A stretch of 32,000 bases of DNA from Geotalea daltonii FRC-32 (GCF_000022265.1 NC_011979.1:3420001-3452000), one strand, 5' to 3'; positions 1 through 16,753 are shown, counted from the stretch's first letter. Translations and numbers: made by a program. Notes: generated by a model not told the origin, from the letters alone.

Positions 1-70
1 AACATTTGCAGTTTTAACTTTTGAAATTTAGAGGCGCAGACCTTCTTCCGTGATCTAACAATTCTTGTGT

Positions 71-2554
71 CTAGCGATTCCATTCCTTTTTAAGGACTTT
101 ATCAGAAGCTTGAATTGCCCTATCTCGTGGAGTTGATACACCAAAATCGAGCCAGTGAATTACATTATAATATTGTTGTTCATCACTAGACATATAGTCT
201 GCAAGAAGCTTTATTAAGCGCTTCTTTGTTAACGCACGAATGCATTTTAAAGCTATACACTTTCGAACTTTTTCGTCCTCATATTGCAGCAGACGGATAA
301 TAGTTTCATCTGTAAGTTCGCGAAAGGCTTTGTCCGGTGTCTCAACTATAAGGTAGGACAATAGCTGGCTTGGCAGCTGCATTGACAGCAGTTCTGTTAA
401 TCTATTTCGGCCCAATGCATATATAGCTTTTGCAGAAACTTGATATTTAGAGTCTTCAGGGGTTGATAATAACAGAGTGTTTTGTCCGGCCTCCGGCCGT
501 TTCACAGAGTCGATAATTAATTTGATGTCCTCCCATTCACCAAATTTACGAAGATACTCAACATCAGTGCTGGAGTAGTCAACAAAGCCACTCTTTAGAG
601 CATTCCTTACAAGTCCCAAGTCCCGCAACTCGGCTTTTTGACAAATAATGTTTAAGCCCTTTCGAGTGAGACTTTTACGTTGATAATCTTCGATGCCTCG
701 TGTCCGTTCTATAACCTCATGGTCCATAGTAAAAATTTCGGACAGCTTATTCAGATAATTTGAAAACTCCTCTTTGAATTGTTCCTCTACTGATTTCCTT
801 AAAATATCTCCTCTTTTTTTAAATTGACGTTCAGCCAAGATGAACTTGGGGTCAAAATCAAAAATTGAGGATTTTTCGGTAATTTTTTCAAGTTCCTTTT
901 CACTTGTTAAACGCAATGTATGATGTTGGTAGTGATTCCAATATGTTTCATCAGTTATTCCTGAAGCGATGGAAAGCATTCCTAAACCGGATTTTTGAGA
1001 TGGTTTGACAAGAATTTTTTTGGCTTCGTCATTTGAAAAAGTACGGCCGTGTTCAATGAGAGTATTAATAGCTTCATATCTTACCTTTGCATCGTTGTCG
1101 CACAACAATTGCTCTACGGTATCAAGTGGCAATGCTTTGCGTTTACGAAGAATCTCTATAGCTTTACGACGTACATTATTGCATTGCTGATCAATGCAGC
1201 TAATAAGTGATTCCGTGCTCAACGCTGCTTCATTGTCAAATAGTGCTATCATTAAATCTTGGTGGACAAATGATGGCCGAAGTTCATTAAGCGCCAAAAT
1301 CGCACATTCGCGGCTTTCACGAAGTTTAATTCGGAGGAATGCATCAGTAGCAGCATTATTTGTTTGATTGTCATTCCTGTCTAGCTCGGCACGGATAATC
1401 GAAATATCTGAAGTAATGCCAAACTCGCCAAGATAATTCAAAGCTGCAACCCTAAGCGCACTTTTAGAGTTGTCAGAAAACCAAGATTTAAGTAAAAAAT
1501 CGCGATTAAAACGTTTTCCACCGGAGGGAAGTGGCTCTGAAATCAGCTTCATCGCAGTGATAGCGTTGATTCGTCGTTCCGTAGGCCCTTTAAATGTGTA
1601 AAATGGCAGAATACTATTTGAAAACTCTCCCATTGCTGCCAGCCATCGCCAAAGAGGAACATTCTCATTGCTAAAGTTACTCAACCCACTGGCAACCAGC
1701 CCGCTTATTTCATGTTGGCCCAATTTAAATTTATCTCCTTTTGCAAACATCAGGTTTGAATCGTGAACACCAAGAGAGTACTCATCATTTCCATGTTTAC
1801 CTAATATTGTTGTGAGCAATCTAAATCGTGCGATTTCTGCACCTTCAATGGGTTCTTGTTCTAAATCCCGCTCCGTTTTTGATATGAAGTCTCGCAGAAA
1901 TTGAGCACCTTCTATGGAAAGTGGTGTTTCGAGAGGTTGTGCATTTGCATCTGATGTTTGTTGTTTTTCATCTTCACTAGGTGGGGCTTGGCTCTGGCTA
2001 TTAACTCTAACTTGTCCTTCGACATTACATAGGCATTTTATGTAGTCTGCTATGCATCGTCGAAATTTCTTTTCAAAATCACTAAAATCAGAAAAATGCT
2101 CGAATAGAATTGTTTTCTCAGTGATGAGTTGTTCTTTAAAATCCAAAACTTTTTTCAGTTGTGCTCCTGGGTCACGAAGGCTATCGGTATCAATTTCCTT
2201 AAAAAGGAGACTTATTTCAGGGAGTCCATCAGCTTTTCGGCGTTCAACGGATCTGTTAAATTCTTCTTCAAAGCCAGATGAATACGTCCCAGCTACGTCC
2301 GGCGGGGTTCCCCATCTCTTCCACATTAAGCCCACAAAGAGTTCACATTGTTCTAGATCACGATTTATAAGAGCTTGGGGACGACCACATCTTGCTACAG
2401 TATCCTCCCATCCCACAAGCTCAACTTGATATCCGAGTTGTTCTGCCCATAATGAATTGAACTCATCGACCACAGTTTTTGCAATTTTGCGTTCATCGGA
2501 TAGGTCACCTGGTGATGCAAGAAACACTTTCACAAATCTTCGACTATTCGCCAT
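71..2554 (-). CDS. DUF4062-like (TIR / nucleoside-deoxyribosyltransferase-like fold) N-terminal domain fused to a long HEAT/ARM-like helical-repeat region; function unknown, candidate defence component
   Basis: Uninterrupted 827-aa ORF. The only competitors are short antisense shadow ORFs. The N-terminus (aa ~8-125, nt ~2180-2533), KVFLASPGDLSDER...CELFVGLMWKRWG, matches the DUF4062 (PF13271) pattern as I remember it. The C-terminal ~500 aa contain HEAT-like units (NVRRKAIEILRKRK; DNDAKVRYEAINTLIEHG; EDEKVRKCIALKCIRAL). AAGAGG lies 5 nt upstream of the ATG. Codon usage is AT-rich, like its two upstream neighbours. Confidence 0.6.
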   Translation of the reverse strand: MANSRRFVKVFLASPGDLSDERKIAKTVVDEFNSLWAEQLGYQVELVGWEDTVARCGRPQALINRDLEQCELFVGLMWKRWGTPPDVAGTYSSGFEEEFNRSVERRKADGLPEISLLFKEIDTDSLRDPGAQLKKVLDFKEQLITEKTILFEHFSDFSDFEKKFRRCIADYIKCLCNVEGQVRVNSQSQAPPSEDEKQQTSDANAQPLETPLSIEGAQFLRDFISKTERDLEQEPIEGAEIARFRLLTTILGKHGNDEYSLGVHDSNLMFAKGDKFKLGQHEISGLVASGLSNFSNENVPLWRWLAAMGEFSNSILPFYTFKGPTERRINAITAMKLISEPLPSGGKRFNRDFLLKSWFSDNSKSALRVAALNYLGEFGITSDISIIRAELDRNDNQTNNAATDAFLRIKLRESRECAILALNELRPSFVHQDLMIALFDNEAALSTESLISCIDQQCNNVRRKAIEILRKRKALPLDTVEQLLCDNDAKVRYEAINTLIEHGRTFSNDEAKKILVKPSQKSGLGMLSIASGITDETYWNHYQHHTLRLTSEKELEKITEKSSIFDFDPKFILAERQFKKRGDILRKSVEEQFKEEFSNYLNKLSEIFTMDHEVIERTRGIEDYQRKSLTRKGLNIICQKAELRDLGLVRNALKSGFVDYSSTDVEYLRKFGEWEDIKLIIDSVKRPEAGQNTLLLSTPEDSKYQVSAKAIYALGRNRLTELLSMQLPSQLLSYLIVETPDKAFRELTDETIIRLLQYEDEKVRKCIALKCIRALTKKRLIKLLADYMSSDEQQYYNVIHWLDFGVSTPRDRAIQASDKVLKKEWNR

Positions 2555-2674
2555 ATCAACCTCTTAGAATTTAGTATCTTTGTTCAACGCTAGGCTGACC
2601 GGCTTGACCGGTCCAGTCGTGAGTTGGTAGCCTCCCTCTAAGGCAAACTAAGCAGCGTCACTCATAGTTTTCCC

Positions 2675-4417
2675 TCAATTCCTAGAAAGCTTTTGAATTG
2701 CGGAGGCAAGGCCATTACGTAGGGATCTAACTGAATAGGCCTTTATCCCGGAAGTGTGTTCAGATAAATAGGATGCTACATACGACATAACTATTTCTAG
2801 GAAGCTCTTTTCTGCTTCAAGGAAGTCTATTATGTTGGAGGCTGAATACCTTGAGTCAACCCAATTTTGGAATTTAAGTATTGTGTCAGGACTACTTTTT
2901 ATAATAATGTTAAATAACCAGTTTGCATCAATGTCTGAAAGTACAGGAGTAGTCGCATGCTGTGTTTCATAAAACCGTTTAAAAAACTCATCAGGCTCGT
3001 TATCAAGCAAACTAAAGGTCTGTGTCACCTCTTCTTTTTGACCAATATTCTGCATCTCATCACAAATTAATTTTATGGTTGCTTTAACTGATCTGTATTC
3101 ATCTAGGTCGACATCATTAAAACTTAAAGGCGTCCATAGTATTTTATTGCACTCTAATTGTCCGGCAGCTCGAAGAACATTTAGCGCTGCAATGAATCCA
3201 TTCTCGATATCAACTGGGCTTTGAGTTATCAGCCTCTCTTTAGAAAAGAAAAACAACCTTTGAGCAAGGTTTATTAAGGTCACCGCATTTTTTATTTTAG
3301 CGCCCGCAATTTCTTCAAGAAAAGCTTTAGCTATAGTAGTCATAGACTCGTCACTGAGGAGCCAAAAATCACTATGAAACAGTTCTTCTTGAGTTCTGAC
3401 TTTAATGCTTTTGTCTTCAATATATTTGGACACATTGTCATCTAGTAGCTTTGTGTTTAGATATCCATATAGGATATAATTAAATAGACTTCCAAATTTA
3501 GGTATACCGTTGTGATTACCATGATAGTATTTTGATACTATTTTTCTAGTTACTGAGTTCTCATCTTGTTTAAATAGATAAAAGCTGGATGAAGCTTCTA
3601 AATGAGTTGCAATTTCCAGTATTGATTTATCATTAAGTAAGCCACTTTTATATTCATTCATGATAACAAGGGTAAAGTATAAAATTGAGTCTAATACATC
3701 TATATTTTCTATCGAAATGTAATCGCATACTGAATTGAATATGCTAAAGGCTTTGCTAATAGTTCTTATATTGTTGCATTTTGATATGGCGTAGTACTCG
3801 TCGAAAACCTTCTTAGTATTGGCGTAGGCGTGCTTTTTAGATGTGCCTGCAATTAACTTATTTACTACAGCATCCATGTCAGGAACATATCTGAATGTAT
3901 AACCGACTAACTTTTCCTTCTGAACAGTATATACGTCGAGGTTCTCAATCTTACTTTCATCGCAGAGGATTATCATTCTGATATGTTCATGCTCAACAAG
4001 CTTATTAAGATAACCAAGTACAGTATCAATCGGCATCTTTACGCGTTCCAGATCGTCAACACATAAAACTATATTACTAGCTCGCATGATTTCGTGAGCA
4101 TTATCCAAATCAATATGCTTTTGTGACAATGAGGATAATGCGCTAGTGACGTTGTTGGCTGATGTCAACCGAAGAAAATCAGAAATTGCAACAGTGATTA
4201 ACTGGTCAATTTCTATTTTAGACTGGATTCCATATAGGGAAATATAGGTTGTATTCCTCTCGCCATTAGGATAATCGATATAAACCCCAGCTTGTATGAC
4301 ATTTTCCCAAAAATATGTTTTACCACTTCCCCATTCTCCTGTTATTAACAATGAATACTCAGGGTGCATATCTCTTATGTACAACTTTATTGAGTCTTCC
4401 ATTTCTTTTAAGTTCAT
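2675..4417 (-). CDS. KAP-family P-loop NTPase
   Basis: 580-aa ORF. Walker A is GEWGSGKT (aa 27-34, nt 4316-4339), which fits the GxWGxGKS/T form typical of KAP NTPases. Walker B is IVLCVDDLER (D121-D122 at nt 4052-4057), which fits the hhhhDDLDR form. The long C-terminal helical region is uncharacterised. I saw no TM insertion in the NTPase domain. Confidence 0.7.
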   Translation of the reverse strand: MNLKEMEDSIKLYIRDMHPEYSLLITGEWGSGKTYFWENVIQAGVYIDYPNGERNTTYISLYGIQSKIEIDQLITVAISDFLRLTSANNVTSALSSLSQKHIDLDNAHEIMRASNIVLCVDDLERVKMPIDTVLGYLNKLVEHEHIRMIILCDESKIENLDVYTVQKEKLVGYTFRYVPDMDAVVNKLIAGTSKKHAYANTKKVFDEYYAISKCNNIRTISKAFSIFNSVCDYISIENIDVLDSILYFTLVIMNEYKSGLLNDKSILEIATHLEASSSFYLFKQDENSVTRKIVSKYYHGNHNGIPKFGSLFNYILYGYLNTKLLDDNVSKYIEDKSIKVRTQEELFHSDFWLLSDESMTTIAKAFLEEIAGAKIKNAVTLINLAQRLFFFSKERLITQSPVDIENGFIAALNVLRAAGQLECNKILWTPLSFNDVDLDEYRSVKATIKLICDEMQNIGQKEEVTQTFSLLDNEPDEFFKRFYETQHATTPVLSDIDANWLFNIIIKSSPDTILKFQNWVDSRYSASNIIDFLEAEKSFLEIVMSYVASYLSEHTSGIKAYSVRSLRNGLASAIQKLSRN

Positions 4418-4477
4418 TAAATTCTCATTATATTATTAGTAGTTTTAGCTAAGTTATATGGCTCTTTTACGCCCTGC

Positions 4478-5197
4478 TTACCGGCTTGCTTTAATAGCGT
4501 CAATAACCGTTTTCTTGACTTCATCTACTTTAAAAAAAACCTCAACTTCTTCTAAATGGAGATGTCTAACTTGCTTCATCATGAACACTACATTGCGATA
4601 TTTACCTATATAGAAGTCCTTTATTTCTTTACTTCCTTGGTTTTTTTCATAGTTTTCTAGGCACCAAATCAGATGGCTTAATTGTTCGCTTACATATGTT
4701 AAATCAAAGGATATTAGTTCTATTACACTTGTTCTGATGTCATCATATATACAAGAAATCGGGTGCGAAGGGTTTAGTTCGATTCTAATTGAATCATCTG
4801 AAATAGACCTTAATAACGTGAATACGTTAAAATCATTAGATTTGTACTTATGCTTTTGTTCAAAAAGTACTTTGTCAATAGTTTCAGCTATTCCGAATAT
4901 CAATTGCTGTAACTCTTCTAGCTTCTGCTGTGTTTTCATGTCTGTTAACTGACGTTTTTGTAGCAAAACAGTATATATAACACCAATAAAGGCAAGGAAA
5001 GCATAAATCGGATTTAACACGCCTCCAATAAAGTCACCAAAGGTGCCCCAGTCGCTTTGATTCGGCGATATGGGATATTTCATAATCCAGCCAAACCGAA
5101 TGAAGTACGCCAATGCACATAGAGCCAAAGGGACTAATGCAAGTAATACAAGATTGCGGATAAGCTTGTCGTCGATCATGTCTTTGTATTTATCCAT
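4478..5197 (-). CDS. Small membrane protein with two N-terminal TM helices; putAbiC-like (putative abortive-infection protein family)
   Basis: 239-aa ORF. The two hydrophobic helices are NLVLLALVPLALCALAYFIRFGW and IGGVLNPIYAFLAFIGVIYTVLL. The inter-helix motif WGTFGDFIGGVLNP...LLQ resembles the conserved core of Pfam putAbiC (PF16872) as I recall it. The C-terminal ~150 aa look soluble and helical. This is the first gene of the three-gene same-strand cluster. Confidence 0.5.
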   Translation of the reverse strand: MDKYKDMIDDKLIRNLVLLALVPLALCALAYFIRFGWIMKYPISPNQSDWGTFGDFIGGVLNPIYAFLAFIGVIYTVLLQKRQLTDMKTQQKLEELQQLIFGIAETIDKVLFEQKHKYKSNDFNVFTLLRSISDDSIRIELNPSHPISCIYDDIRTSVIELISFDLTYVSEQLSHLIWCLENYEKNQGSKEIKDFYIGKYRNVVFMMKQVRHLHLEEVEVFFKVDEVKKTVIDAIKASR

Positions 5198-5336
5198 CTA
5201 TATCTCACTTTCGGAGTATTATGTATGCCGATTTGTAATGTTAACATTTCTGCATTTCTGCCGCTAAAGGACTTGGGGCGCAAGTTTCTATCCTTGTTCC
5301 GGTTGTCGACCAACTCATTATTCACCGATCAGGTCG

Positions 5337-5463
5337 GCATCTAATATTATATTCCAGCATCTAATATTAGATACAGGCATGCAATATTGGATGCCACAAG
5401 GCATATAATAATAGATGCTTTTACCTGATGGGGCACTTCTCCTTTGCATCTAATATTATATGC
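5337..5463. repeat. Array of five 18-bp near-palindromic sites, consensus GCATCTAATATTAGATGC (candidate operator or iteron array)
   Basis: Copies: 5337-5354 GCATCTAATATTATATTC; 5357-5374 GCATCTAATATTAGATAC; 5377-5394 GCATGCAATATTGGATGC; 5401-5418 GCATATAATAATAGATGC; 5446-5463 GCATCTAATATTATATGC. The first three are phased at exactly 20 bp. The array lies 140-270 bp upstream of the ATG at 5197, on the island side of the GC transition. Confidence 0.75.
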
Positions 5464-5717: not shown

Positions 5718-8700
5718 CTATTGACAGGTGCCGTCTGCAGATGTGTAGGCTGGGGTTGTCGCTTGCAGGGTGTTGCTGAAGGGTGAGAAGTCCCCTCCCC
5801 GGTATGCCCTCACCTGATAGGCGTATGCCTTCTGGGGTTCGATGGCCAGGGTGTCGGTGTAGCTGCCCGTATTGGGCACCGTTGTCACCAGCCCCATTTC
5901 TCCGGTGGGAAGCAGGCGCCAGATCTGGAAGCCGTCGGGATTTTCACAGGGGACCGGAGTGCAGGCGGCACCCGTGTAGCTCCATTCCAGTTTGATCTTG
6001 CCCGAATTCAGAGGGGTGACGGCATTAAGGCTTGGAGCACCGACGGCAGGGGTTTTCTGGCAGACAATGTTGCTTGGGGCCGAGTCACCGCCGGTGGTGT
6101 TCCAGGCGGTCATCTGATAGCAGTATTCCACGTTCTCCGTCAGGGAAGTATCCCCATGGGTAGTGAAGACCGGCACCAACGTGGGGCAGCCAATGGTTGG
6201 GCTGGTATAGTATCCGCAATAGAGTGTCGAATAGGGGATTGCCAGGTTGTTGATCTGGCTCCACGGTCCATTGCCGCCGATTGAGCGCAAGATCTTGTAA
6301 TTAGTGGCGCCGTAGACCACCTGCCAGGTAAGATCTATTCTCGCCTCGCTGATCAGCTTTGTCGTCAATGAAGGTGCAGCCGGGGTTGTGGTGGCCGATT
6401 GGATATTGCTGGGCACTGAATAACTGCCGGCGGTATTTTTTGTGGAGACGCGATAATAGTAGAGGGTACCGGCAGAAAGGCCGCTGTTGGTATAGGTGAT
6501 GGCACCTTGGGCAGGGGTAGCCACCTGCGACCAGTTGGCGCCGTCGGGGCTTCGCTCTACCTTGTACCCGTCATTGCCGGCAACGTCGTTCCATGAAAGG
6601 ATGATTTGGCCGGTGGTGATGCCGGACAGGGTATTCAGCACCGGCGGCGTGATGGGCAGGGTGGCTGCGCTCTGCTCGTTGGATGCGACAGAGTATGCGC
6701 CAACACTGTTTTTGGTATAAACGCGGTAGTAGTAGGTAGTGTTGGCAGCGGCAGTGGTGTCGCTGTAGATGGCAACATCTGTTACAGGTGTTGCCAACTG
6801 TGACCAGGCGACAGTGTCGGTTTTGCGCTCGATCTTGTAGCCGGTATTGCCGGTGATGTTGGTCCAGGAAAGATCGATTTTTGACTGGGTGATGCCGGTA
6901 AGAGGGTTGAGAACCGGCGCGTCAAGCCACGTGGTCTGTGTGACAGTAGAACTCCACGGCGAATCCCCCGCCAGATTGGCCGCGTTCAGCCTGAAACAGT
7001 AGGTGGTACCCGATAGCAGGCTGCTCACTGTCGTAGTAATCGAGTTCTGGGCAACCGACGTGGAAGTAACGCCGGTCCAGTCTTCGGTGGTGCAGTCTGC
7101 GCCGTTTCGCACCTTGTGCTGCAGATTATAGGAGGTTTCCCCGGTTTTGTCGGTCCAGGAAAGTTTGATCTGGGAACTGGAAACTACCGAGGTGCTGAAG
7201 CTCGGCGTAGGGGGAACGGTAGTTGCCATGAACTCGTTGCTGAAGGCTGAAAAGCTGCCATCGGCCAGCTTGTAGCGAATTTTGTACTTGTAGGTGTAGC
7301 CGGCTGTAAGCCCGCTGTTGTTAAAGACAACCGTATCGGCAGCCAGTGGTGTCGGTGTCCCATTGACGTAAACACTCCAGGAGCCGGTGCCTGGACTTGC
7401 CGGAGGAGTCGATTGGTATGTGGCTGCACTTCGCCACACTTCATATCCCACATCACCGGTCACATCGATCCAGGCCAGGTCGATCTGGCCTTGGGACACG
7501 CCGGTGACGCTGGTGAGCGTTGGCGGACCATAGATGGTCACGCATGCCTCGTTGCTGTCACTCGAGCTTGTGCCATTGTAGGGCTGCACCTTGAAGCAGT
7601 ATGGGATATTCATGCTCAATCCACTGACCGTATAAATGGTGGTATTTTGTGCCAGCGGCAATCCGCTGCCGGAGAGGACGACACCGTCTTTCAGCACCCG
7701 GTAATTCGTTTCACCAAAGACATCCGACCAGGAAAGGCTGACCGAGCTGTCCGTTGCGGCAGTGGCAACCAGATTTGTCGGACCGGAAACATTCGTCCGG
7801 GCCGTTACTATGGTGCTGGTATCCGAATTGACGGTTCCCACAGCCGTAACCCTCAACCGGTAAAGGTTGCCGGGGGTAAGACCGCTAATGTTCCTCGTTG
7901 TTGCGTCAACGCCCAGGTTGACCGTGGTCCAGGCGGTCCAGTAGTAATCATAGCCTGTATTCGAGGCGCAGTAAGTTTGATTCAGACAATCGGAATACTC
8001 CAGTTTGTAACCACTCTCAAAACTGTTGGGGTCGCTCCAGTTGACGGAGATTTCGCTGGTGGAAACGGTGGTTGCCGATGTAATGGCCGGCGTCTGCAGC
8101 TTGGTTCGCCCGGACTGCACCAGGCTGGCAGCGGAATCACCATCTGGATTTGTTGCCCGCAGGCGATAGTAATAGAGAACTCCGGCAACGACGGTGGTAT
8201 CTGAGAAGCTGACCGCGGCAGCACCCGGAATGGCAATAACGGTCCAGGTGCTGTTGTCCGTGCTCCGCTCTACCTTGTAACCGGTAGCCCCGGTAACTGC
8301 AGGCCAAGTCAAATCGATCTTGGCGGCGGTAATCCCGGCCAAGACATTGAGAACAGGGGCAACCTGCACATTGCTGGCGAGGGAAAGCCCGGCACTGTTG
8401 ATGGTATTGATTCGATATTGATAGACTACTCCGGCAGTCAGGGTTGTATCGTGGTAAAGCAAAGTATCGGGAGCGAGATTGTTGCCGATCTGGGTCCAGC
8501 TTCCTCCGCCTGCCATTCTCTCCAGCCGGTAGCCGCTGTTGCCGGGTATATTGTTCCAGCTGACATCCACTGACGTTGGCGACAGGAGAGACAGTTGATC
8601 AAGAACCGGCGCCTGGAGGGTTGTGGTGGCGCAGGTGGTAATCTTTCGGGAAACCAGGCTGCCGTTGTAGGCTTCGATACGGTAGCAGTACTGGGTATTG

Positions 8701-11700
8701 CCGTTGAGGCCACTGTCAACAAAAGCAGTCGTACCGGCAGAGGCGGTGTTGATTGGGGTCCAGATACTGGAAGAGGTTATGGGGCCAAGGGTCCGCTCGA
8801 TGCGGAAGCCGGCGCCGGCAGTATTGCTGCTCCAGGCAAGATCGATCCTGCTGTAATCTGCCTGTGGGGTTGCCGTGAAAGGCGCAGGAACGAGAATGAA
8901 ATTATTGACCTGCTTGATCACCAGATAATCGGCATTTCCGGTTGCATTGGCCGAGCTTCCGGCAATGAATGCCTCCCCCTGATAGTTGACGGCGATGGAG
9001 CTGGCTTCATCATTGCCATTGGCAGCGCCGTTGTAAGTGGTGGCACCCAACAGCGCCCCCTCATGGTCATAGATGAGTGACATAACGTCAATGGTGGCAC
9101 CGTTGCTGGTGTTGCCGGCAACATAGATATATCCCGAGGCGTCCACAGCCATGGCGATCGCCTGATCGTCGTTCACCGGGCGCTGCAGACTTTTCTGCCA
9201 GACCACATCCCCGGCGGCATTGTACCTGACCAGGGTCACGTCATGATCACCGGGGCCGGTCAATGTGGTCCCGGCAACGATGATCGCTCCGTCAATGGGG
9301 TCAATTCTTAACGATACTCCATCGTCATCACCGTTTGCCGGCCCGGCAACCGGGCGTTCCCAGATCCTCTGGGCGATATTGCCGCTACCGCTGTACTTGA
9401 TGGTGTAGATATCCCTGTTGCCGGCGGCGGTCTTTGCCGATCCGGTTACGTACACATCTCCTGCCGTATCTGTGGCAATGGAATTGCCCCGGTTATCCCC
9501 ACCGGAGATTACGCTGTAAAGGTCGGACCAGATGAGGGCGCCGTTGGTGCCGCTGTATTTTGCGGTAAAGAAGTTGTAGATGTTGGAACCTGGAGCCGTT
9601 TCGCTGTAACCGGTAACGTAGACGTTGCCGTCCGGCCCGATGGCTACCGCACTGGGGATGTCGTCCCCGCCACCGTCAAAGGGCACCGCGGCCCAGGAGG
9701 AAACTGCATTGCCCAGCTCATCCAGGAGAGGTGCCGCAGCATATTTGACCACATAAATGTCCTCGTTACCTGCTGCATTCTTGCCATAACCGATGACGAC
9801 GATGTTGTTACCGGCATCGGTGGTGGTGTCAATGGCCGTCGCCCGGTCATCGATGGCACCGGGGCCGTTGTACTGGCTGTGCCACAGTTCCGGAGGCCCT
9901 GCTGCAGGGTATTTCAAGGTATAGATGGAGTTGATGTTCCTCTGGGCCGGTGCGTAGAAAAGTTGCGAGTAGCCCGAGACGATGGCATTGTTGCTGCCAT
10001 CCACCGCCACGCATTTGGCCACATCCATTTCACTATCCGCATCATCGTAAAGGTGACTCCAGATGATACTTTTATCCACATTGCTCAATTTGAGGGTGTA
10101 GTAGTCGAATCCCCCCACGGCACGGAGGCTGTAACCGGTGACTACCGGATTGTTGTCCGGACCGACGGCAACGGCATTGGCGAAATCATCCATGTCATCG
10201 GGGTTGTTGTACAGATAGCTCCAGCTGGGGGCGATAAAATTGACGAACACAGTCAGGGCGCGGGCCTCGTTGCTGTAGTGGGAATCGCCGTTGGCGGCGT
10301 TGTAAGCTCGTACCCGGTAGTAGTAATAATTATTGGCAATCAGCCCCTCATCGGTATAGGTGGTGATCCCTGCTCCGACAGCGCCAATCTGGGCAAAGGT
10401 TCCCTGTTCTCCCAGCTTCCTCTCGATCTTGAACCCATCCTCGTTGCCGGAGTTATCGGTCCAGGAGAGCCCGACGCTGGTGCTTGAAATGGTTGCGGTT
10501 GCCAGACTGGTGGGGGGGTTGAGGGCACCGGCGTCGTATTTGATCAGGTAGTAGTCCAGATCGCTGCCGTTGTCCGACCAGCCACCCACCAGAACGTCTC
10601 CTGCCGGCGAAAATCCAAGGCCGACCGGGCGATCGTTCTTACCTGCAGTTCCATTGAAGCTGCTGTGCCACAACTGGTTACCGTTGTCTCTTTTGTATTT
10701 GATAGTCTGGAAGTCGTAATTTCCCGCCGCCACCGTATAGCCGGTAACGAATACATCCCCTGCCTCGTCGACGGCGATGCCGGTGGCTATTGCCACATCG
10801 GTGTTGCCGTCTCCCGAGTCGAAATTCTGCTGCCATACGATAGCACCGTTACTGCCTGAATAGCGGGCAGTATAAAAGTCGTTGGTGCCGGAAAGGGTCC
10901 AGGTATAGCCCGTAACATAGACATCACCCCCCGCGTCCACATAAAGGCCGTTGGGTTCGTCGTTGAAGGCTCCGTTGTAGGTCCTCTCCCAGACAATGGC
11001 ACCGGTCGCACCGTTGTGTTTGGCAGTATAGATATCCAGGTCCAGGTTGTTTGCCGCCGTACCGCTGACGATTACGTTGCCGCCGGCATCCATCTTCACC
11101 TGTTTCCCGGAACATACATATCCGGCCCCTGATGAGTAGCGCCGCTCCCACAGGTTGCTTCCGTCGAAGCCATATTTGATGGTGAGCAGGTCATAGGAAG
11201 TGCCGTTCCATGATTGACCCGTTACAGCAAGTCCGTCAATGCCTGCGGCAAGGGAATACAGCTGGTCGGCGCCTTGGGCTGTCCCGTTATAGGTAGCAGC
11301 CCAAAGGGGAGTCCCGTCAGGATCAGGGCCCCCGGCGCTGTATTTGAGAATGACGAGATCGTCATTGCCCGAAGCATTCTGGGTGGTCCCGCCAACATAG
11401 ACATTATTGAGGGAGTCTACCGAAACTGCGGTGCCCAGATCGTTGCCACTGGCCCCCCCGTTCCAGGTATGCTGCCAAAGCACGACTCCGGTTGCTCCGC
11501 TGTACTTGATGGTGTGGATATCCTTGTTCGTCCCGTTCCAGACATATCCGGTTACGATCACATCATTGGCTGCATCGACCACAATGGCGGTGGCCTTGTC
11601 TGAGGCTCCCGCCCTGTCATAAAAGGCACTCCAGGCTATGTCCGATCCATCCGCCTTGAATTTGACGGTGTAGTAATCGTCGTTGGTATCACCGGCAAGA

Positions 11701-11918
11701 TTCCGGTAGCCGGTTACCAGGAAATTCCCCTGGGGATCCACAATGGAAGCCTGAGCCTCCTGGGTACCGGCTTTGAGGTCGCCCTTTTGCCAGACGATAT
11801 CGCCGCCGGCGGCGAAAGAGTCGCTGAGGGAAAGGTTGACAAACGCCAGGATCAGGAATAGCCCCCCCGTGAATTGACAAAATATCCGGAAAAAGTAATT
11901 TGATTTTATAGTTACCAT
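5718..11918 (-). CDS. Giant secreted protein: signal peptide, SBBP beta-propeller region 1, FN3, SBBP beta-propeller region 2, then 11 tandem FN3 domains
   Basis: 2066-aa ORF. The N-terminal signal-like segment is FTGGLFLILAFVNLSLSDSFAAGG. The SBBP-type blade pattern recurs (D..a.avD..GNvyVtGyt....DyyTiKY...G..lW), for example DIHTIKYSGATGVVLW, DLLTIKYGFDGSNLW, DFYTARYSGSNGAIVW, DIYVVKYAAAP and DIYTIKYSGSG. By my count there are 12 FN3-like units with the LSWtD.tGe.GYkiERs...YyYRV signature. Approximate map: propeller 1 at 11800-10530, FN3-1 at 10515-10250, propeller 2 at 10240-8900, FN3 x11 at 8890-5760. Confidence 0.85.
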   Translation of the reverse strand: MVTIKSNYFFRIFCQFTGGLFLILAFVNLSLSDSFAAGGDIVWQKGDLKAGTQEAQASIVDPQGNFLVTGYRNLAGDTNDDYYTVKFKADGSDIAWSAFYDRAGASDKATAIVVDAANDVIVTGYVWNGTNKDIHTIKYSGATGVVLWQHTWNGGASGNDLGTAVSVDSLNNVYVGGTTQNASGNDDLVILKYSAGGPDPDGTPLWAATYNGTAQGADQLYSLAAGIDGLAVTGQSWNGTSYDLLTIKYGFDGSNLWERRYSSGAGYVCSGKQVKMDAGGNVIVSGTAANNLDLDIYTAKHNGATGAIVWERTYNGAFNDEPNGLYVDAGGDVYVTGYTWTLSGTNDFYTARYSGSNGAIVWQQNFDSGDGNTDVAIATGIAVDEAGDVFVTGYTVAAGNYDFQTIKYKRDNGNQLWHSSFNGTAGKNDRPVGLGFSPAGDVLVGGWSDNGSDLDYYLIKYDAGALNPPTSLATATISSTSVGLSWTDNSGNEDGFKIERKLGEQGTFAQIGAVGAGITTYTDEGLIANNYYYYRVRAYNAANGDSHYSNEARALTVFVNFIAPSWSYLYNNPDDMDDFANAVAVGPDNNPVVTGYSLRAVGGFDYYTLKLSNVDKSIIWSHLYDDADSEMDVAKCVAVDGSNNAIVSGYSQLFYAPAQRNINSIYTLKYPAAGPPELWHSQYNGPGAIDDRATAIDTTTDAGNNIVVIGYGKNAAGNEDIYVVKYAAAPLLDELGNAVSSWAAVPFDGGGDDIPSAVAIGPDGNVYVTGYSETAPGSNIYNFFTAKYSGTNGALIWSDLYSVISGGDNRGNSIATDTAGDVYVTGSAKTAAGNRDIYTIKYSGSGNIAQRIWERPVAGPANGDDDGVSLRIDPIDGAIIVAGTTLTGPGDHDVTLVRYNAAGDVVWQKSLQRPVNDDQAIAMAVDASGYIYVAGNTSNGATIDVMSLIYDHEGALLGATTYNGAANGNDEASSIAVNYQGEAFIAGSSANATGNADYLVIKQVNNFILVPAPFTATPQADYSRIDLAWSSNTAGAGFRIERTLGPITSSSIWTPINTASAGTTAFVDSGLNGNTQYCYRIEAYNGSLVSRKITTCATTTLQAPVLDQLSLLSPTSVDVSWNNIPGNSGYRLERMAGGGSWTQIGNNLAPDTLLYHDTTLTAGVVYQYRINTINSAGLSLASNVQVAPVLNVLAGITAAKIDLTWPAVTGATGYKVERSTDNSTWTVIAIPGAAAVSFSDTTVVAGVLYYYRLRATNPDGDSAASLVQSGRTKLQTPAITSATTVSTSEISVNWSDPNSFESGYKLEYSDCLNQTYCASNTGYDYYWTAWTTVNLGVDATTRNISGLTPGNLYRLRVTAVGTVNSDTSTIVTARTNVSGPTNLVATAATDSSVSLSWSDVFGETNYRVLKDGVVLSGSGLPLAQNTTIYTVSGLSMNIPYCFKVQPYNGTSSSDSNEACVTIYGPPTLTSVTGVSQGQIDLAWIDVTGDVGYEVWRSAATYQSTPPASPGTGSWSVYVNGTPTPLAADTVVFNNSGLTAGYTYKYKIRYKLADGSFSAFSNEFMATTVPPTPSFSTSVVSSSQIKLSWTDKTGETSYNLQHKVRNGADCTTEDWTGVTSTSVAQNSITTTVSSLLSGTTYCFRLNAANLAGDSPWSSTVTQTTWLDAPVLNPLTGITQSKIDLSWTNITGNTGYKIERKTDTVAWSQLATPVTDVAIYSDTTAAANTTYYYRVYTKNSVGAYSVASNEQSAATLPITPPVLNTLSGITTGQIILSWNDVAGNDGYKVERSPDGANWSQVATPAQGAITYTNSGLSAGTLYYYRVSTKNTAGSYSVPSNIQSATTTPAAPSLTTKLISEARIDLTWQVVYGATNYKILRSIGGNGPWSQINNLAIPYSTLYCGYYTSPTIGCPTLVPVFTTHGDTSLTENVEYCYQMTAWNTTGGDSAPSNIVCQKTPAVGAPSLNAVTPLNSGKIKLEWSYTGAACTPVPCENPDGFQIWRLLPTGEMGLVTTVPNTGSYTDTLAIEPQKAYAYQVRAYRGGDFSPFSNTLQATTPAYTSADGTCQ

Positions 11919-14900
11919 GGCGTCACCTTATTCCAGCTGTTATCGGGCCAGGCGCCGCCCGGATGGCAGTTGACCCCATACTGATCGGCACCACGGGGGA
12001 AACTGCCGCTGCTTGGGTTGGGATAGTTGGAATATTCAAAGGTAGCGGGGCCGTTAGACCCTGCCTGTCCGCCGGAAGCCACCCTTCCCCTGTGTCTTGT
12101 ATCAAGGCAGTTGGTCTGCATGAGGCGAGGCATGCCGCTTGTGTGTGGCGCATGGCACTTGGAACAGCTATAGGAATGCTGCGTGTTGGCTCCCCATCCC
12201 TTGACCGACTCGTGCACCCGATCGGCACTTTTCCAAGGCTGGTTCTTGTTGATGCCGTCGGTGAGCTTCGACTTGTTGTGACAGCGCAGGCAAAGCCCGG
12301 CGAAACTGCTGTCGTCCTCTGAAATCCTGGCCCCACCGAAGGTGTTCTGGTCGGTGTAAGCCCCCGGCGGCCCGTATAGCTTCTGCCCCCCCGGCGGATT
12401 AGCGGTATCTGCTATGGCCGCATCTTCCCGATATGGTGATGTAAGCCAGGTTCCCTTAAGCATCGGCACGGCAAGGGGCTGCTTCGTTCCCAAAACCGGG
12501 CTTACCCCATGGGGATCGTGGCAGGGTGTGCAGAGACCATTGATCTTGTTTTGCGCAGCAGTTGTATTGTTGAGGAAACTGGACGATTTCAAGTGCCCAC
12601 CCTTGATGGCCATATTCTTGTAAGAGTAACGGCTCATATATCCGGCAGTATCCGCCCCGAAGCGGAACGAATCAAGGTAGCCCCTGATGGGTGCAGTTGC
12701 ACCGAATGTGGACTCATATCCCCATGGGGTTACGCCCACGTTCTGGTTCAGGTGACAGTCGAAGCATTGACCGGCCCCGGCATTATAAGGATTGATGGAA
12801 CCGGCAGCGCTATTGGCCGAAGCCTTGTAGCTCATGGCGTAGCCCCCCTTGCCCGCCTGTGTTTCTTTGAGATTGGCTCCGTTGTATGTACCGTTGAAAG
12901 TCAGGTAACTTGAGGTCACACCTACTACCTTCGAGCCGTGGGAACTGTGACAGTCGAAACACTGTACGTTCTGGGCGCCGTTTCTGGTATTGGCAATGGA
13001 GCTGTCGAGGCCATTGATGGCATCGAAGCCGCCCTGGTTGGCTACTGCGTTGCCGTGGGCGGAAACCGCCTTGGTTACCCGGTCCTTCTGATTGGCACCG
13101 GGATAGGTGGTGGAGTTGTACTTGCCCCAAGACACGGTGCCCTGCTGTGAATAACGGGCAGCAACGCTCTGCAGATCCCATGCATACTGGCGCGGCGTCT
13201 TGCAGTCGTTGAACGGCACGCTGTCATTGTTCTGGTCACTGTGGCAGCTGATGCAGACATTGGTGAGCTTGGTCACTTCCGTCCGCTCATTGGCAGTGCC
13301 GATATTGCTGGCAAGGAAGCTGACGGCAGTCGTATAGAGCTTATAAACGGTGGGCCTGATGCCGGGTTCCCAGACGACCAGATCCACGGGCGCATTCTTC
13401 GCCGACGAATAATTCTTGTAGTTGTAGCCCTCATGGTGCTTCACATCGATGAGTCCTTCCGGTGTCGATTCCCAGTGGCACGAGTAACAATGCTTGTTGG
13501 TTACCGTCACCCCTTGCACATGATGGGAATTGGCTTTCATCTGCCCCATGATGTCCATACGCATGCCGATGGTGCCGCTGTGACACTTTGTGCAGTCCCT
13601 GGGCAGGCCGAACCCTGAATGGCGCGGCACCGGCTTGTTTTGGTGGCAGGTGTTGCATGGCTGGTCATCGGCATGGCTGTCGGTAAAGCGATGTTCGTGA
13701 CAGGAAGTGCAGACGCGGCTGGCATTGTGTCCGTCGCCGCCATCCACGCGGTAATGCTGGCTTCCGGCAGAATGGCAGACGTTGCAGATGCCGTTGTATG
13801 GGGCATTGATCCGGGCATAATCAAGCCCGCTCTGTTTCCTGGTGAATGAAACATCGGCCCTGGTTTTCGGAATGCCGAAGGTCCCCTCGGTGGAGGTGGC
13901 AACCTTGTTCTGGATCATAAAGATATTGCCGTCCCCATGGGGATCATGGCAGTCCCAGCAGAATTTGCCCCCTTTCCAAACGCCATCCTGGACATAGGCC
14001 CGGTTGTGTTTATAGCCAAAGTGGACAGAAGATGCCCTGGCCTTCTGAGGCTTGATGAACCGGTACTCGGCTGAAGAAAATGGCCTGAAGCCAAGAGAGT
14101 ACTTCAGTGGTTTGTTCGCGGGAGCGGAATGACAGCTGTTGCACTTGCCTCCCGTATCGTCGTCATGGCATTTGAGGCAGACCCCCATCATCAGGTACTG
14201 ATTTTTCACATCCCCCTTCTGGTCGGCAGTCCATATACCGGCACCGGCATTGTGCCGTTTCATATCATTGGTCGGGCTGGCCGGATCAACAAAATGGCAT
14301 AACGTGGTCAGACAGGATGTACCTCCACCGGACATGGGCCGGTGATCCGGACGGGGAGCGACACTGCCGTCTGGCCAGGTTGTCGAAGGGTCTGCCGGCA
14401 GCGAAGCCAGCTGCGGGGCCAGTGATTCGTCGTTGTCATGGCATGAGAGACATTCGCTGTCGAGGCCGATCATGTGACAGTAGACGCATTCTTTTTCGAA
14501 ACGGTTGGTATACTGGTCATGCTGCCGCAGCCGGAAAGGGTTGCCGGTGTCATTGTGCAGGATATTGTTATCATGACAGTACCAGCAGGGGTTGCCGGGG
14601 AAATTTGCCGCCGGATTGCCGCTTGCCGGGTATGGTCCTGCGGATATAGGCCTGCCATGTCCTGTGGTTGCCCATTCGGTAAGGTTTATTCTGGCCTGGG
14701 TGCTGTAGATCTTGAAGCCGAAGCTGTCCACATCGGGGCTGGTGGTGCCGTGGCACGTAAGACAGATGACACCCGTGTTCACCGAGCTTCCCCACTGGGG
14801 GTCTGTGCCGCCGGAATGACAGGCGGTGTTGGAACAGGTCTTGGTGACGGGATTATATGATCCCCCCTGCTTGAATACCACGTCCTTGGCCTTGTTCACG

Positions 14901-16753
14901 TGGTACGAACCATTGAGATGGGAGACCTCAGACATGCTGCCAAGGGGAATACCGGTGGCATGACAGTCGGTGCAGATGCCGTTGGTAATGGTGGCGGTAT
15001 GGCACTGATCGCAGGTAAAATTGGTATCTGCGTGTCTCTGGTGTGAATTGGCGCGGTCCGAACCGGAACCCTGGTTGGGGAACATGGGAGTTGCTGCCTT
15101 CCATTCCTGGCCGGCAGGCCAGCCGGCTTTGGCAGTCCAGACCTTACCGGTGCTGTCGGTCCTTCCATCATGGCAGAGGGTGTTTGAGCATGTTCCACTG
15201 GGATGGCCATGACAGCTGTTGCAGTCCGTTTTTGGCGCAGTCCAGGCAAAGGGACGCACGTCTTCAGGGTTAGTGGTGCCGTCGCTATGGCAGTAGACGT
15301 TGTCGCAGATCTTGTTGGCTGCGTCATACACCGGGGCAGACCTGCCGACTATCGCCCACTGGCTGCCCATTGACACATCCTTCACGCCATTGGTATGCCT
15401 TGTTTTATCGATGATATTGCCGTTGGCATCGATGGTGGCATTATGGCAGTAGGTACAGGGGTATCTGCGTATCCATTGGGGACCCACCAGTCGCGAATGG
15501 CCGTTGGAAGTAATATTGACGTAAGGGGCGCAGAAGCCCTTGTCACTGTTCCAGACGCCGCCCGTATCGGCACAGTTGGCGGGGGTATTGTCCTGGGTGC
15601 GCCCCTTGTGGCACGAGTAGCACTGCATGGGGGCGGTATCCGTCCATTTGACTGAAAAGGTCGGTGCACCACCGTCTGCATTACTGTGGCAATAGGCATT
15701 GCAGCTTTTATCTTCCGAACCGTAATTGCCCCCCTCCCTGAAGGAGACATCCTTGTTTTTGTTCACATGGCTGGCTTTGTCGGCAATGGTATCGCTGCCG
15801 TTTGCCGTCGTCTTATGACAACGCTCACAGCTATAGGCATAGCCGGAACTCCCGGTATGCTTTCCATGCCTGCCGCTGAGGTTCGTGGTATCGCCAGCGC
15901 TATCGTGGCATGAATTGCAGGATGAGGCGAATGTGGCCCCCCATGTCGGTGTAGTTTTGGGAGCTCCCTCCTGCCCGTCGCTGTGGCAGTAGAGGTTGGA
16001 ACAGCTGCCGTTTCTGTCTTCGGCCCGGGTCCGGCTCGGCAGATAGTTGGGATAGCTCAGATTCTGTGGTTTGCCATAGCCGCCGCCGCTGTTTGGCGCC
16101 ACATTAAAGGACAGGATCAGGTTTCTGCCGACACTGGTGGCATGGGAAAACGGGTTGGCACCGGCGAAATGACTGACATGGCAGATGCCGCAACTGCCAC
16201 TACCGGTGCCATAGTAGTCACCATGCTTCTTGCCAGGTCCAGAGGCAGCTGGATGATTGCCATCAGCCGGTGGAGTATCGTGGCAGGCCCCGCATCCGGT
16301 TTCTAAAGTAAGGACGGCACCGCCCCAGACAGGGGTTTCTTTCTCGAAATGGCAATTGACGTTCGTGCAGGTGCCAAGTGAAGGGGTTGAGGTCTGGGGG
16401 AAGGGAGTGGTACTGTTTTTATATGTAGCAGCCTGGGGAGAATTCTTGATGTTGGAGGACAATCCGATTACCCCATCGCGATGGCTCGTGGTGTAGCTGT
16501 CGCTGCCGGGATGGCACTTGGTGCAGCTAGTGGCATTGGCGCCGATAGCAAGATGGTTGCGATGTGTTCCCTGAAATCCGCCGGTGGTGATGTTGCGGTA
16601 GGGGGCGTCGGTGGGACGGAAATCCATGGCGGACCTGGTACCGTGGCAGTCATAGCAGCTTATTGAGGCGCCTGCACTGGTAACGGTCAGAAAAAAAGTT
16701 GTTGCTACTCCCAGCCAGATAAGAAAACGCTGCCGGTATTGAACATTGCTCAA
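11912..16753 (-). CDS. Giant multihaem c-type cytochrome (about 29 CXXCH plus 6 CX4CH and 1 CX3CH motifs), secreted
   Basis: 1613-aa ORF. The N-terminal signal-like segment is FLIWLGVATTFFLTVTSAGAS. Manual count gives 29 CXXCH motifs (CYDCH ... CSKCH). Modules of the form CX4CH-(~20 aa)-CXXCH recur, for example CTNVNCH...CGACH, CSNLYCH...CNSCH, CDNVYCH...CNSCH and CSNTACH...CLTCH. These match the Geobacter CxxxxCH...CXXCH domain (TIGR01904) from memory. The C-terminal half has CxxCHdPHG motifs typical of the doubled-CXXCH family. The start is TTG at 16753, preceded by GGGGGGGAACC. Confidence 0.9.
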   Translation of the reverse strand: MSNVQYRQRFLIWLGVATTFFLTVTSAGASISCYDCHGTRSAMDFRPTDAPYRNITTGGFQGTHRNHLAIGANATSCTKCHPGSDSYTTSHRDGVIGLSSNIKNSPQAATYKNSTTPFPQTSTPSLGTCTNVNCHFEKETPVWGGAVLTLETGCGACHDTPPADGNHPAASGPGKKHGDYYGTGSGSCGICHVSHFAGANPFSHATSVGRNLILSFNVAPNSGGGYGKPQNLSYPNYLPSRTRAEDRNGSCSNLYCHSDGQEGAPKTTPTWGATFASSCNSCHDSAGDTTNLSGRHGKHTGSSGYAYSCERCHKTTANGSDTIADKASHVNKNKDVSFREGGNYGSEDKSCNAYCHSNADGGAPTFSVKWTDTAPMQCYSCHKGRTQDNTPANCADTGGVWNSDKGFCAPYVNITSNGHSRLVGPQWIRRYPCTYCHNATIDANGNIIDKTRHTNGVKDVSMGSQWAIVGRSAPVYDAANKICDNVYCHSDGTTNPEDVRPFAWTAPKTDCNSCHGHPSGTCSNTLCHDGRTDSTGKVWTAKAGWPAGQEWKAATPMFPNQGSGSDRANSHQRHADTNFTCDQCHTATITNGICTDCHATGIPLGSMSEVSHLNGSYHVNKAKDVVFKQGGSYNPVTKTCSNTACHSGGTDPQWGSSVNTGVICLTCHGTTSPDVDSFGFKIYSTQARINLTEWATTGHGRPISAGPYPASGNPAANFPGNPCWYCHDNNILHNDTGNPFRLRQHDQYTNRFEKECVYCHMIGLDSECLSCHDNDESLAPQLASLPADPSTTWPDGSVAPRPDHRPMSGGGTSCLTTLCHFVDPASPTNDMKRHNAGAGIWTADQKGDVKNQYLMMGVCLKCHDDDTGGKCNSCHSAPANKPLKYSLGFRPFSSAEYRFIKPQKARASSVHFGYKHNRAYVQDGVWKGGKFCWDCHDPHGDGNIFMIQNKVATSTEGTFGIPKTRADVSFTRKQSGLDYARINAPYNGICNVCHSAGSQHYRVDGGDGHNASRVCTSCHEHRFTDSHADDQPCNTCHQNKPVPRHSGFGLPRDCTKCHSGTIGMRMDIMGQMKANSHHVQGVTVTNKHCYSCHWESTPEGLIDVKHHEGYNYKNYSSAKNAPVDLVVWEPGIRPTVYKLYTTAVSFLASNIGTANERTEVTKLTNVCISCHSDQNNDSVPFNDCKTPRQYAWDLQSVAARYSQQGTVSWGKYNSTTYPGANQKDRVTKAVSAHGNAVANQGGFDAINGLDSSIANTRNGAQNVQCFDCHSSHGSKVVGVTSSYLTFNGTYNGANLKETQAGKGGYAMSYKASANSAAGSINPYNAGAGQCFDCHLNQNVGVTPWGYESTFGATAPIRGYLDSFRFGADTAGYMSRYSYKNMAIKGGHLKSSSFLNNTTAAQNKINGLCTPCHDPHGVSPVLGTKQPLAVPMLKGTWLTSPYREDAAIADTANPPGGQKLYGPPGAYTDQNTFGGARISEDDSSFAGLCLRCHNKSKLTDGINKNQPWKSADRVHESVKGWGANTQHSYSCSKCHAPHTSGMPRLMQTNCLDTRHRGRVASGGQAGSNGPATFEYSNYPNPSSGSFPRGADQYGVNCHPGGAWPDNSWNKVTPW

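Follow-up and report, generated by a model that had tools for sequence, protein, structure and literature searches.

The 32,000-nucleotide stretch of DNA analysed here (the window; GCF_000022265.1 NC_011979.1:3420001-3452000, with positions counted from its first letter) belongs to the chromosome of Geotalea daltonii FRC-32 and carries at its left edge a block of AT-rich genes that are very probably anti-phage genes. Within the window, the block comprises three open reading frames (ORFs) on the minus strand, which we refer to as gA (Geob_3129), gB, whose product matches a G. daltonii FRC-32 protein with 100% identity, and gC (Geob_3127). They are separated by intergenic gaps of 60 nucleotides (gA/gB) and 120 nucleotides (gB/gC). 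Logan assemblies of the same genome show that the low-GC block does not end at the left edge of the window but includes a fourth gene on the same strand, gD. The features of the locus are the following:

5197..4478, minus strand: gA, ORF of 239 amino acids, membrane protein
4417..2675, minus strand: gB, ORF of 580 amino acids, soluble KAP-type/STAND-like P-loop NTPase, PDC-S49
2554..71, minus strand: gC, ORF of 827 amino acids, DUF4062/NIR domain and HEAT repeats
2669..5211, minus strand: extent of the gA-gB cassette, as delimited by blastn homology to contig L003
1..70, minus strand: 3' flank of gC, leading to gD, which lies 138 nucleotides downstream of gC
14036-14830 in L001, beyond the left edge of the window, same strand: gD, 264 amino acids, predicted DUF6602 NucC-like PD-(D/E)xK nuclease
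5337..5463, no strand assigned: array of five copies of the 18-bp palindrome GCATCTAATATTAGATGC

The G+C content (GC) was the same for gA and gB (0.351) and higher for gC (0.401) and gD (0.444), whereas the two host genes flanking the block showed values of 0.562-0.565 and positions 6000-32000 of the window a value of 0.554. An initial annotation, made from the sequence alone, had described three same-strand genes with gaps of 60 and 120 nucleotides which were AT-rich compared with the rest of the window; both the ORFs and the GC contrast agree with this description, and the observation is therefore real. A terminator scan detected no minus-strand terminators inside the block, neither between gA, gB and gC nor elsewhere in it, and a promoter scan found promoter-like sites at chance level. 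Both available contigs that cover gD end 40 nucleotides after this gene, which suggests that a repeat or a mobile element lies just beyond it.

A blastn comparison aligned positions 5211..2669 of the window with positions 9216..11749 of contig L003, with 74.2% identity over 2544 nucleotides and nothing matched outside this span. The homology has its limits 14 nucleotides upstream of the gA start and 6 nucleotides past the gB stop. The pair present in L003/L004, which is the closest gA-gB pair elsewhere, encodes proteins with 77% (gA) and 71% (gB) identity to those of the window, and the two genes are spaced by 49 nucleotides in L003 and by 60 nucleotides in G. daltonii. In L003, the pair appears as an insert of 0.33-0.34 GC in a metagenomic host of 0.66 GC, so that the cassette has a GC of 0.33-0.35 in both hosts, whose own GC values are 0.56 and 0.66. 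gC is not present in L003/L004. As the DNA homology spans exactly gA and gB, the two genes travel as a two-gene cassette, which is shared by unrelated hosts and is probably mobile. Right after the gB homologue of L003 (11750-12000), we also observed a tandem duplication of about 51 nucleotides (GGGAAACAGGGGACGCCCATGAAATCATGCGCAACTCATCTTACCGATTAA), followed by a partial inverted copy; this repeat could be an element marking the boundary of the cassette.

The neighbourhood of gC was analysed in 80 loci that contain gC homologues (29-58% identity), with flanks of 10 kb. Neither tblastn nor custom profile hidden Markov models (HMMs) detected homologues of gA, gB or gD in these loci. Furthermore, all-against-all clustering of the ORFs located within 6 kb revealed no conserved neighbour, as no cluster was shared by more than 9 of these loci, and the neighbours that recurred were housekeeping genes or integrases. 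The initial annotation had proposed that gA, gB and gC constitute one system, and this proposal failed when co-occurrence was checked by tblastn and three custom HMMs: none of the 80 gC loci, the approximately 97 gA-like loci or the 28 viral gB loci contained the trio, its only occurrences being L001, L002 and L220, which are assemblies of the same G. daltonii genome. Given that the homology to L003 is confined to gA and gB, and that the gC loci are devoid of gA, gB and gD, the block is therefore composed of the gA-gB cassette, gC and gD; the GC value common to gA and gB, versus the distinct values of gC and gD, supports the same division. Hence, the locus is probably a horizontally acquired, low-GC defence island of at least three separately acquired units and not one system, and positions 1-5211 of the window are likely to represent the right-hand part of this island.

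The protein encoded by gC carries a DUF4062 domain (PF13271; 2e-8, residues 9-101, 34.7 bits against a cutoff of 24.7) and HEAT repeats (HEAT_2 at 6.8e-11 for residues 448-516, and HEAT at 1.5e-5), with no match to a P-loop or to any other domain. Both domains had been predicted in the initial annotation together with a HEAT region of about 500 amino acids; the domains were recovered but the extent was not, as HEAT repeats are detectable in the sequence only over residues ~355-520, and AlphaRep/HEAT chains of the PDB match residues 359-503. The PADLOC model PDC-S60 matched gC at 5.5e-33 over the N-terminal 182 positions only, which correspond to the DUF4062 part. Residues F11, Q60, W81, E97 and E98 are invariant in 18 gC homologues, with an acidic motif SSGFEEE[FY]. 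The search with gC yielded 792 proteins at E<=0.001, and the best 120 of these 792 relatives are nearly all full-length proteins of about 810-860 amino acids with 44-82% identity; among genome_contigs, 217 matched stretches encode a gC relative. gC is accordingly a member of a well-conserved family of full-length proteins.

The annotation of the second gene as a KAP-type NTPase was borne out by our analyses. gB matches the Pfam family KAP_NTPase (PF07693) at 1.1e-10 (41.7 bits against a cutoff of 20), the best stretch covering residues 11-42 only, and contains the Walker A motif GEWGSGKT (K33) and the Walker B motif VDDLER (D121/D122), which are invariant as GxWGSGKT and DDLER in an alignment of 26 sequences. 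In PADLOC, the only matches of gB were the three PDC-S49 profiles, all of them over the full length of the protein: PDLC05031 at 1.1e-72 (residues 7-577 of 580), PDLC05029 at 2.8e-63 and PDLC05030 at 9.1e-44. In the literature collection searched, no paper mentions PDC-S49. gB also matches phrog_4740 at 6e-47. The AlphaFold2 (AF2) model of gB, with a predicted local distance difference test (pLDDT) score of 82, has a P-loop core and, after it, a C-terminal half that is all-helical and variable. The Foldseek matches of this model were ORC/Cdc6, RADAR RdrA, TnsC, CED-4/Apaf-1 and NRC2 (a plant NLR), with E values of 1e-4 to 1e-3, and the modelled fold indicates an AAA+/STAND-like oligomerising switch.

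No transmembrane segment was found in gB, which has no hydrophobic window of 19 residues, and in 120 gB homologues the Walker A and Walker B motifs are spaced by 88-132 amino acids with no transmembrane insert. The hallmark of the KAP family, according to its original description of 2004, is the presence of transmembrane helices within or beside the NTPase domain. Tmn, which had been put forward as a precedent for gB, carries transmembrane helices in or beside its NTPase domain, and the analogy fails because gB and its 120 homologues are devoid of a transmembrane insert. A Tmn-like identity of gB was thus not supported, nor did any Tmn model appear among its PADLOC matches, which were to PDC-S49 only. 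Relatives of gB were found in 28 viral or prophage contigs, and also on plasmids; gB relatives adjoin integrases, lysins, AbiTii, PD-(D/E)xK nucleases, Dnd genes and small serine recombinases; such mobile and defence-rich surroundings are typical of defence genes. More distant relatives (L005, L006) stand alone beside Dnd genes or housekeeping genes.

gA comprises an N-terminal membrane hairpin, formed by its two hydrophobic helices, and a cytoplasmic helical domain (residues ~95-239). In the AF2 model (pLDDT of 80.6), helices at residues 10-38 and 47-113 precede a hairpin, after which comes a helical bundle. The membrane hairpin contains the invariant motif DWGTFGDFxGGxLNPIYxFLAF, and residues W50-F70 are invariant in the alignment of the 15-member gA family. 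Apart from a match to phrog_8999 at 1e-15, the searches with gA were negative: no Pfam family and no PADLOC model, those of AbiC and AbiP included, matched the protein, a sequence search of the PDB retrieved no related solved structure, and a fold search with the gA model gave nothing significant (best E of 0.07).

The first gene had initially been described as putAbiC-like, and from this description the protein with two transmembrane helices and its motif stand, but the family assignment does not, since PF16872 was not matched by gA at E<=1 in the Pfam search and was absent from gA and its 14 close homologues even at E<=10 (15 family members searched). Only residues 6-94 of gA are homologous to proteins that carry PF16872, namely to their N-terminus (hhalign 99.6%, E of 1.3e-24). 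Distant gA-like proteins do bear PF16872 at their C-terminus (L105, L164, L201 and L211, which served as positive controls), and PADLOC assigned the L105 protein to AbiP and AbiC, and the L201 protein to AbiP. The motif is shared by way of the membrane module, and thus the motif cited in the initial annotation was genuine, although it lies outside the Pfam putAbiC domain. On the basis of these comparisons, gA represents a new subfamily built on an AbiC/AbiP-type membrane module. In the literature collection searched, the terms putAbiC and PF16872 do not occur.

The genes found next to gA homologues are diverse. Close homologues (45-77% identity) were located directly upstream of a PDC-S49 NTPase twice. 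In another two loci (L013 2494-6449 and L014 248-4059), homologues with 56% and 60% identity lie directly upstream of defence systems on the same strand, one of them 80 nucleotides before a complete Gabija system (GajA at 6.5e-201, GajB at 1.5e-157) and the other 46 nucleotides before two Eleos-like dynamin GTPases. In L013, a small serine recombinase gene is located just upstream of the gA homologue on the opposite strand. A further homologue directly precedes a PD-(D/E)xK-like gene, others sit within other defence-like clusters, and one is found by itself, with a histidine kinase on one side and a sigma-54 regulator on the other. More distant relatives lie between hsdR and hsdM or adjoin OLD-family ATPases. 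For instance, L108 (3311-9848) encodes a 441-amino-acid protein with a gA-type module between hsdR-like and hsdM-like genes, with gaps of 1 and 38 nucleotides. Such varied neighbourhoods would fit an autonomous defence gene that populates islands.

gD matches DUF6602 (PF20247) at 8.8e-23, and PADLOC retrieved PD_DExK at 4.1e-21 and NucC at 2e-11 and 5e-9. Compared with the PDB chain 6uxf of NucC, gD gave a match of 9.7e-5 with the D...E-V-K motif aligned, whereas its C-terminal 140 amino acids had no match to NucC. gD would therefore be a DUF6602, NucC-like PD-(D/E)xK nuclease of the Damona type and a separate unit of the island. The parts of the island are thus of kinds that have already been named or catalogued, namely Vulcan type, PDC-S49 and Damona type. 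The block had been presented as an undescribed system, a status that was lost upon the PADLOC check, which identified gB as PDC-S49, and with the NIR-HEAT architecture having already been named Vulcan.

Two other arrangements of the membrane module were observed. In the viral contig L201 (4765-8914), genes for a PDDEXK_4 nuclease, a PDC-S49 NTPase and a putAbiC protein are arranged in tandem, with a first gap of +52 nucleotides and a second one of -13 nucleotides; this tandem may be a three-gene variant. At 13 loci, which correspond to 13 distinct metagenomic contigs (L147, L167, L137, L156, L145, L173, L153, L159, L115, L171, L166, L172 and L154; for example, L167 6044-7651), a two-gene operon was found. 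The product of its first gene is soluble, about 270-288 amino acids long and without a Pfam family above threshold, and its second gene encodes, starting -25 to +17 nucleotides after the first, a protein of about 250 amino acids with the gA-type two-helix module. The two genes co-diverge, their identities falling from 82%/73% to 26%/31%, and some members are also found as identical copies in IMG/VR viral contigs (L183-L189). PADLOC gave no convincing match for this operon, only a weak one to PDC-M02B at 2e-4, and it may represent an undescribed two-gene system.

Several observations weigh against an island made only of independent parts of known kinds. gA and gB have been kept together as a precise pair in two hosts, and gB has no recognisable enzymatic effector domain. 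In two viral lineages separate from the gA-gB clade, the gene of a PF16872 protein adjoins that of a PDC-S49 NTPase, downstream of it with an overlap of 14 nucleotides in L201 and upstream of it with a gap of 19 nucleotides in L211. The gA-type module is also the second gene of the co-diverging operon at 13 other loci, and thus the membrane module can act as a partner subunit. Since no terminators were detected between gA, gB and gC, the three genes may be co-transcribed and hence be subject to some regulatory coupling. Finally, the assignment of gC to the Vulcan type, which we propose from its architecture and conserved motifs, was made by comparison with published descriptions.

The cassette in two hosts, the adjacency of PDC-S49 and putAbiC genes in two lineages and the 13-locus operon suggest that the gA-type module might be a reusable membrane subunit for various cytoplasmic defence proteins, gA-gB being a two-component variant of PDC-S49, a view that we put forward with considerable reserve. 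Here, gB would sense infection and switch on gA, which would damage or depolarise the membrane, while gC and gD would be separate. The cassette is indeed discrete, with 74% nucleotide identity in two unrelated hosts, similar spacing (60 and 49 nucleotides) and equal GC, and gB, having neither the transmembrane insert typical of KAP proteins nor a recognisable effector domain, would have handed over its membrane part and its effector to a separate AbiC/AbiP-like protein, gA. The PF16872 proteins that adjoin PDC-S49 NTPases in L201 and L211 have the membrane module of gA. If gA works with gB, PDC-S49 would gain a mechanism, and it would be explained how a KAP-type NTPase without helices reaches the membrane. 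However, whereas the gB clade and two viral lineages have an adjacent gA/putAbiC-type protein, most PDC-S49 relatives examined have no conserved partner and no such neighbour (L005, L006 and about 24 of the 28 viral loci), and PADLOC models PDC-S49 as a single-gene system. Moreover, at 45-64% identity the homologues of gA are either paired with quite different genes or unaccompanied, no gA-gB fusion was found among 120 gB homologues, and proteins with a Walker A motif were not significantly enriched beside gA-like genes (7/43 versus 20/198, p=0.28, in a crude test). We consequently regard a two-component gA-gB system as unlikely.

A system made up of gA, gB and gC, in which the HEAT repeats would sense infection, the NTPase would act as the switch and the membrane protein and DUF4062 would be the effectors, seems highly improbable in spite of the common strand, the short gaps, the lack of a detectable terminator between the genes and the low GC that they have in common. 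The trio is restricted to the G. daltonii genome and its own read assemblies, none of the 80 gC loci contains gA or gB, the nearest gA-gB pair has no gC and its homology ends with the stop codon of gB, gC has a GC unlike that of gA and gB, and NIR-HEAT proteins have been reported to work alone (bioRxiv 10.64898/2026.09.04.749371). We give just as little credence to the block being non-defence cargo of a mobile element, involved for example in membrane stress or NAD metabolism. Whereas gA has no characterised homologue, which would be compatible with such a role, every gene fits defence families (PDC-S49, DUF4062/NIR, NucC/PD_DExK and the AbiC/AbiP-type module), and homologues occur in prophages and beside Gabija, Eleos-like, Dnd, restriction-modification and toxin-antitoxin genes. 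The defence function that the initial annotation had attributed to these genes is in line with these matches and surroundings.

Under the preferred reading, that of an island of separately acquired defence units, each unit would act by itself. gC would be an autonomous, single-protein defence of the Vulcan type, whose HEAT region would bind a phage protein; once bound, the N-terminal DUF4062/NIR domain would be set free or made to oligomerise, and the infected cell would as a result stop growing. What is proposed for the enzymatic activity and trigger of gC is drawn by analogy from preprints of 2026, whereas its domains, its conserved residues and the lack of a conserved partner were observed directly. 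gB would be an ATP-dependent switch (K33, D121/D122) whose variable helical C-terminal region probably senses infection. As for gA, it would most likely be an independent, membrane-acting abortive-infection or exclusion protein which merely travels with gB and, less likely, the membrane effector of gB.

Upstream of gA, outside the gA-gB cassette and at the junction between island and host DNA, we found five copies, from perfect to degenerate, of an 18-bp perfect palindrome (GCATCTAATATTAGATGC) within 127 nucleotides (5337-5463), i.e., 140-266 nucleotides upstream of the gA start. Half-sites of this palindrome gave 9 matches within the 127 nucleotides versus 0.49 expected in the whole window. 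The palindrome was absent from the other fetched loci except for copies of the same genome, and viral contigs contained two single matches only, at chance level. No regulator gene is evident near the array, which may serve as an operator or as a res-like site for a recombinase. Outside the island, the window consists of ordinary Geobacter-type DNA, with TPM/LemA proteins, MeaB and a chemoreceptor among its products. Two very large host genes (5718-16753) abut the island; one encodes a 2066-amino-acid repeat protein with faint-to-weak SBBP and fn3 matches, and the other a 1613-amino-acid multihaem cytochrome with Geobacter CxxxxCH/CxxCH motifs.

For annotation purposes, the locus should be recorded as an island of single- and two-gene modules and not as a new three-gene system, the modules being an NADase of the Vulcan type, a PDC-S49 NTPase accompanied by an AbiC/AbiP-like membrane protein, and a nuclease of the Damona type.

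When compared with known systems, gA shares with putAbiC, AbiC and AbiP proteins the same N-terminal two-helix module with the GTFGDxxGGxLNP motif. It differs from putAbiC proteins in that the domain defined by Pfam is their cytoplasmic C-terminal part, which is missing from gA and its close homologues, and in that the C-terminal domain of gA is without a detectable relative. PDC-S49 is a single-gene candidate defence system of PADLOC v2, matched over its full length by gB, and the difference is that in the gB clade a membrane-protein gene, gA, precedes the NTPase gene. With EF_KAP, Tmn and PifA, gB has in common a KAP-type Walker A/B NTPase followed by an uncharacterised C-terminal region. 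EF_KAP is a KAP-domain single protein that has been validated as a defence and requires both its NTPase and its C-terminal region; its NTPase domain contains or adjoins transmembrane helices, and its Walker B is at D246/D247 (PMC13552941). Unlike EF_KAP and Tmn, gB lacks a membrane segment, and the Walker B of gB is found at D121/D122 instead of the D246/D247 of EF_KAP.

Damona is a single-gene defence with DUF6602 and with secondary matches to Cas PD_DExK and to a CBASS endonuclease (bioRxiv 10.1101/2024.07.02.601686). gD has the DUF6602 domain, the same secondary matches as Damona and a NucC-like D...E-x-K motif; its likeness to Damona is proposed from its domain and the published description.

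The TIR-like, NAD-directed nature that the initial annotation had suggested for DUF4062 has been shown experimentally for other DUF4062 proteins in three preprints of 2026. According to these studies, DUF4062 works as an NADase of TIR-like type whose catalytic residue is a Glu. In Swarozyc, which is activated by the portal, this residue is E97 (bioRxiv 10.64898/2026.05.01.722283), and Evangelion, another DUF4062 protein, has F11 and E87-Y88 motifs (bioRxiv 10.64898/2026.06.25.731849); both are single-gene defences that combine DUF4062 with auxiliary domains. gC resembles both systems in the predicted TIR-like NADase core, the N-terminal aromatic residue (F11 in gC), the predicted catalytic Glu and a sensor region that would control NAD+ depletion. 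It differs from these two systems, for whose auxiliary C-terminal regions no HEAT repeats are described. The third system, Vulcan, is a single protein in which an N-terminal NIR domain is fused directly to C-terminal HEAT repeats; it has a catalytic E98, depletes NAD+, causes growth arrest at high multiplicity of infection and is triggered by a small phage protein, lambdap79 of lambda, the validated protein being WP_050009967.1 from Enterobacter roggenkampii (bioRxiv 10.64898/2026.09.04.749371). gC shows the same direct fusion of N-terminal DUF4062/NIR and C-terminal HEAT regions, with no NTPase between them, and also has no conserved partner gene. The Glu that is invariant at residue 98 of gC carries the number reported for the catalytic E98 of Vulcan, the proposed equivalence being drawn from position and motif. 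The trigger of gC is probably other than lambdap79, and gC adds an example from the Desulfuromonadota to the recently described NIR-HEAT family.

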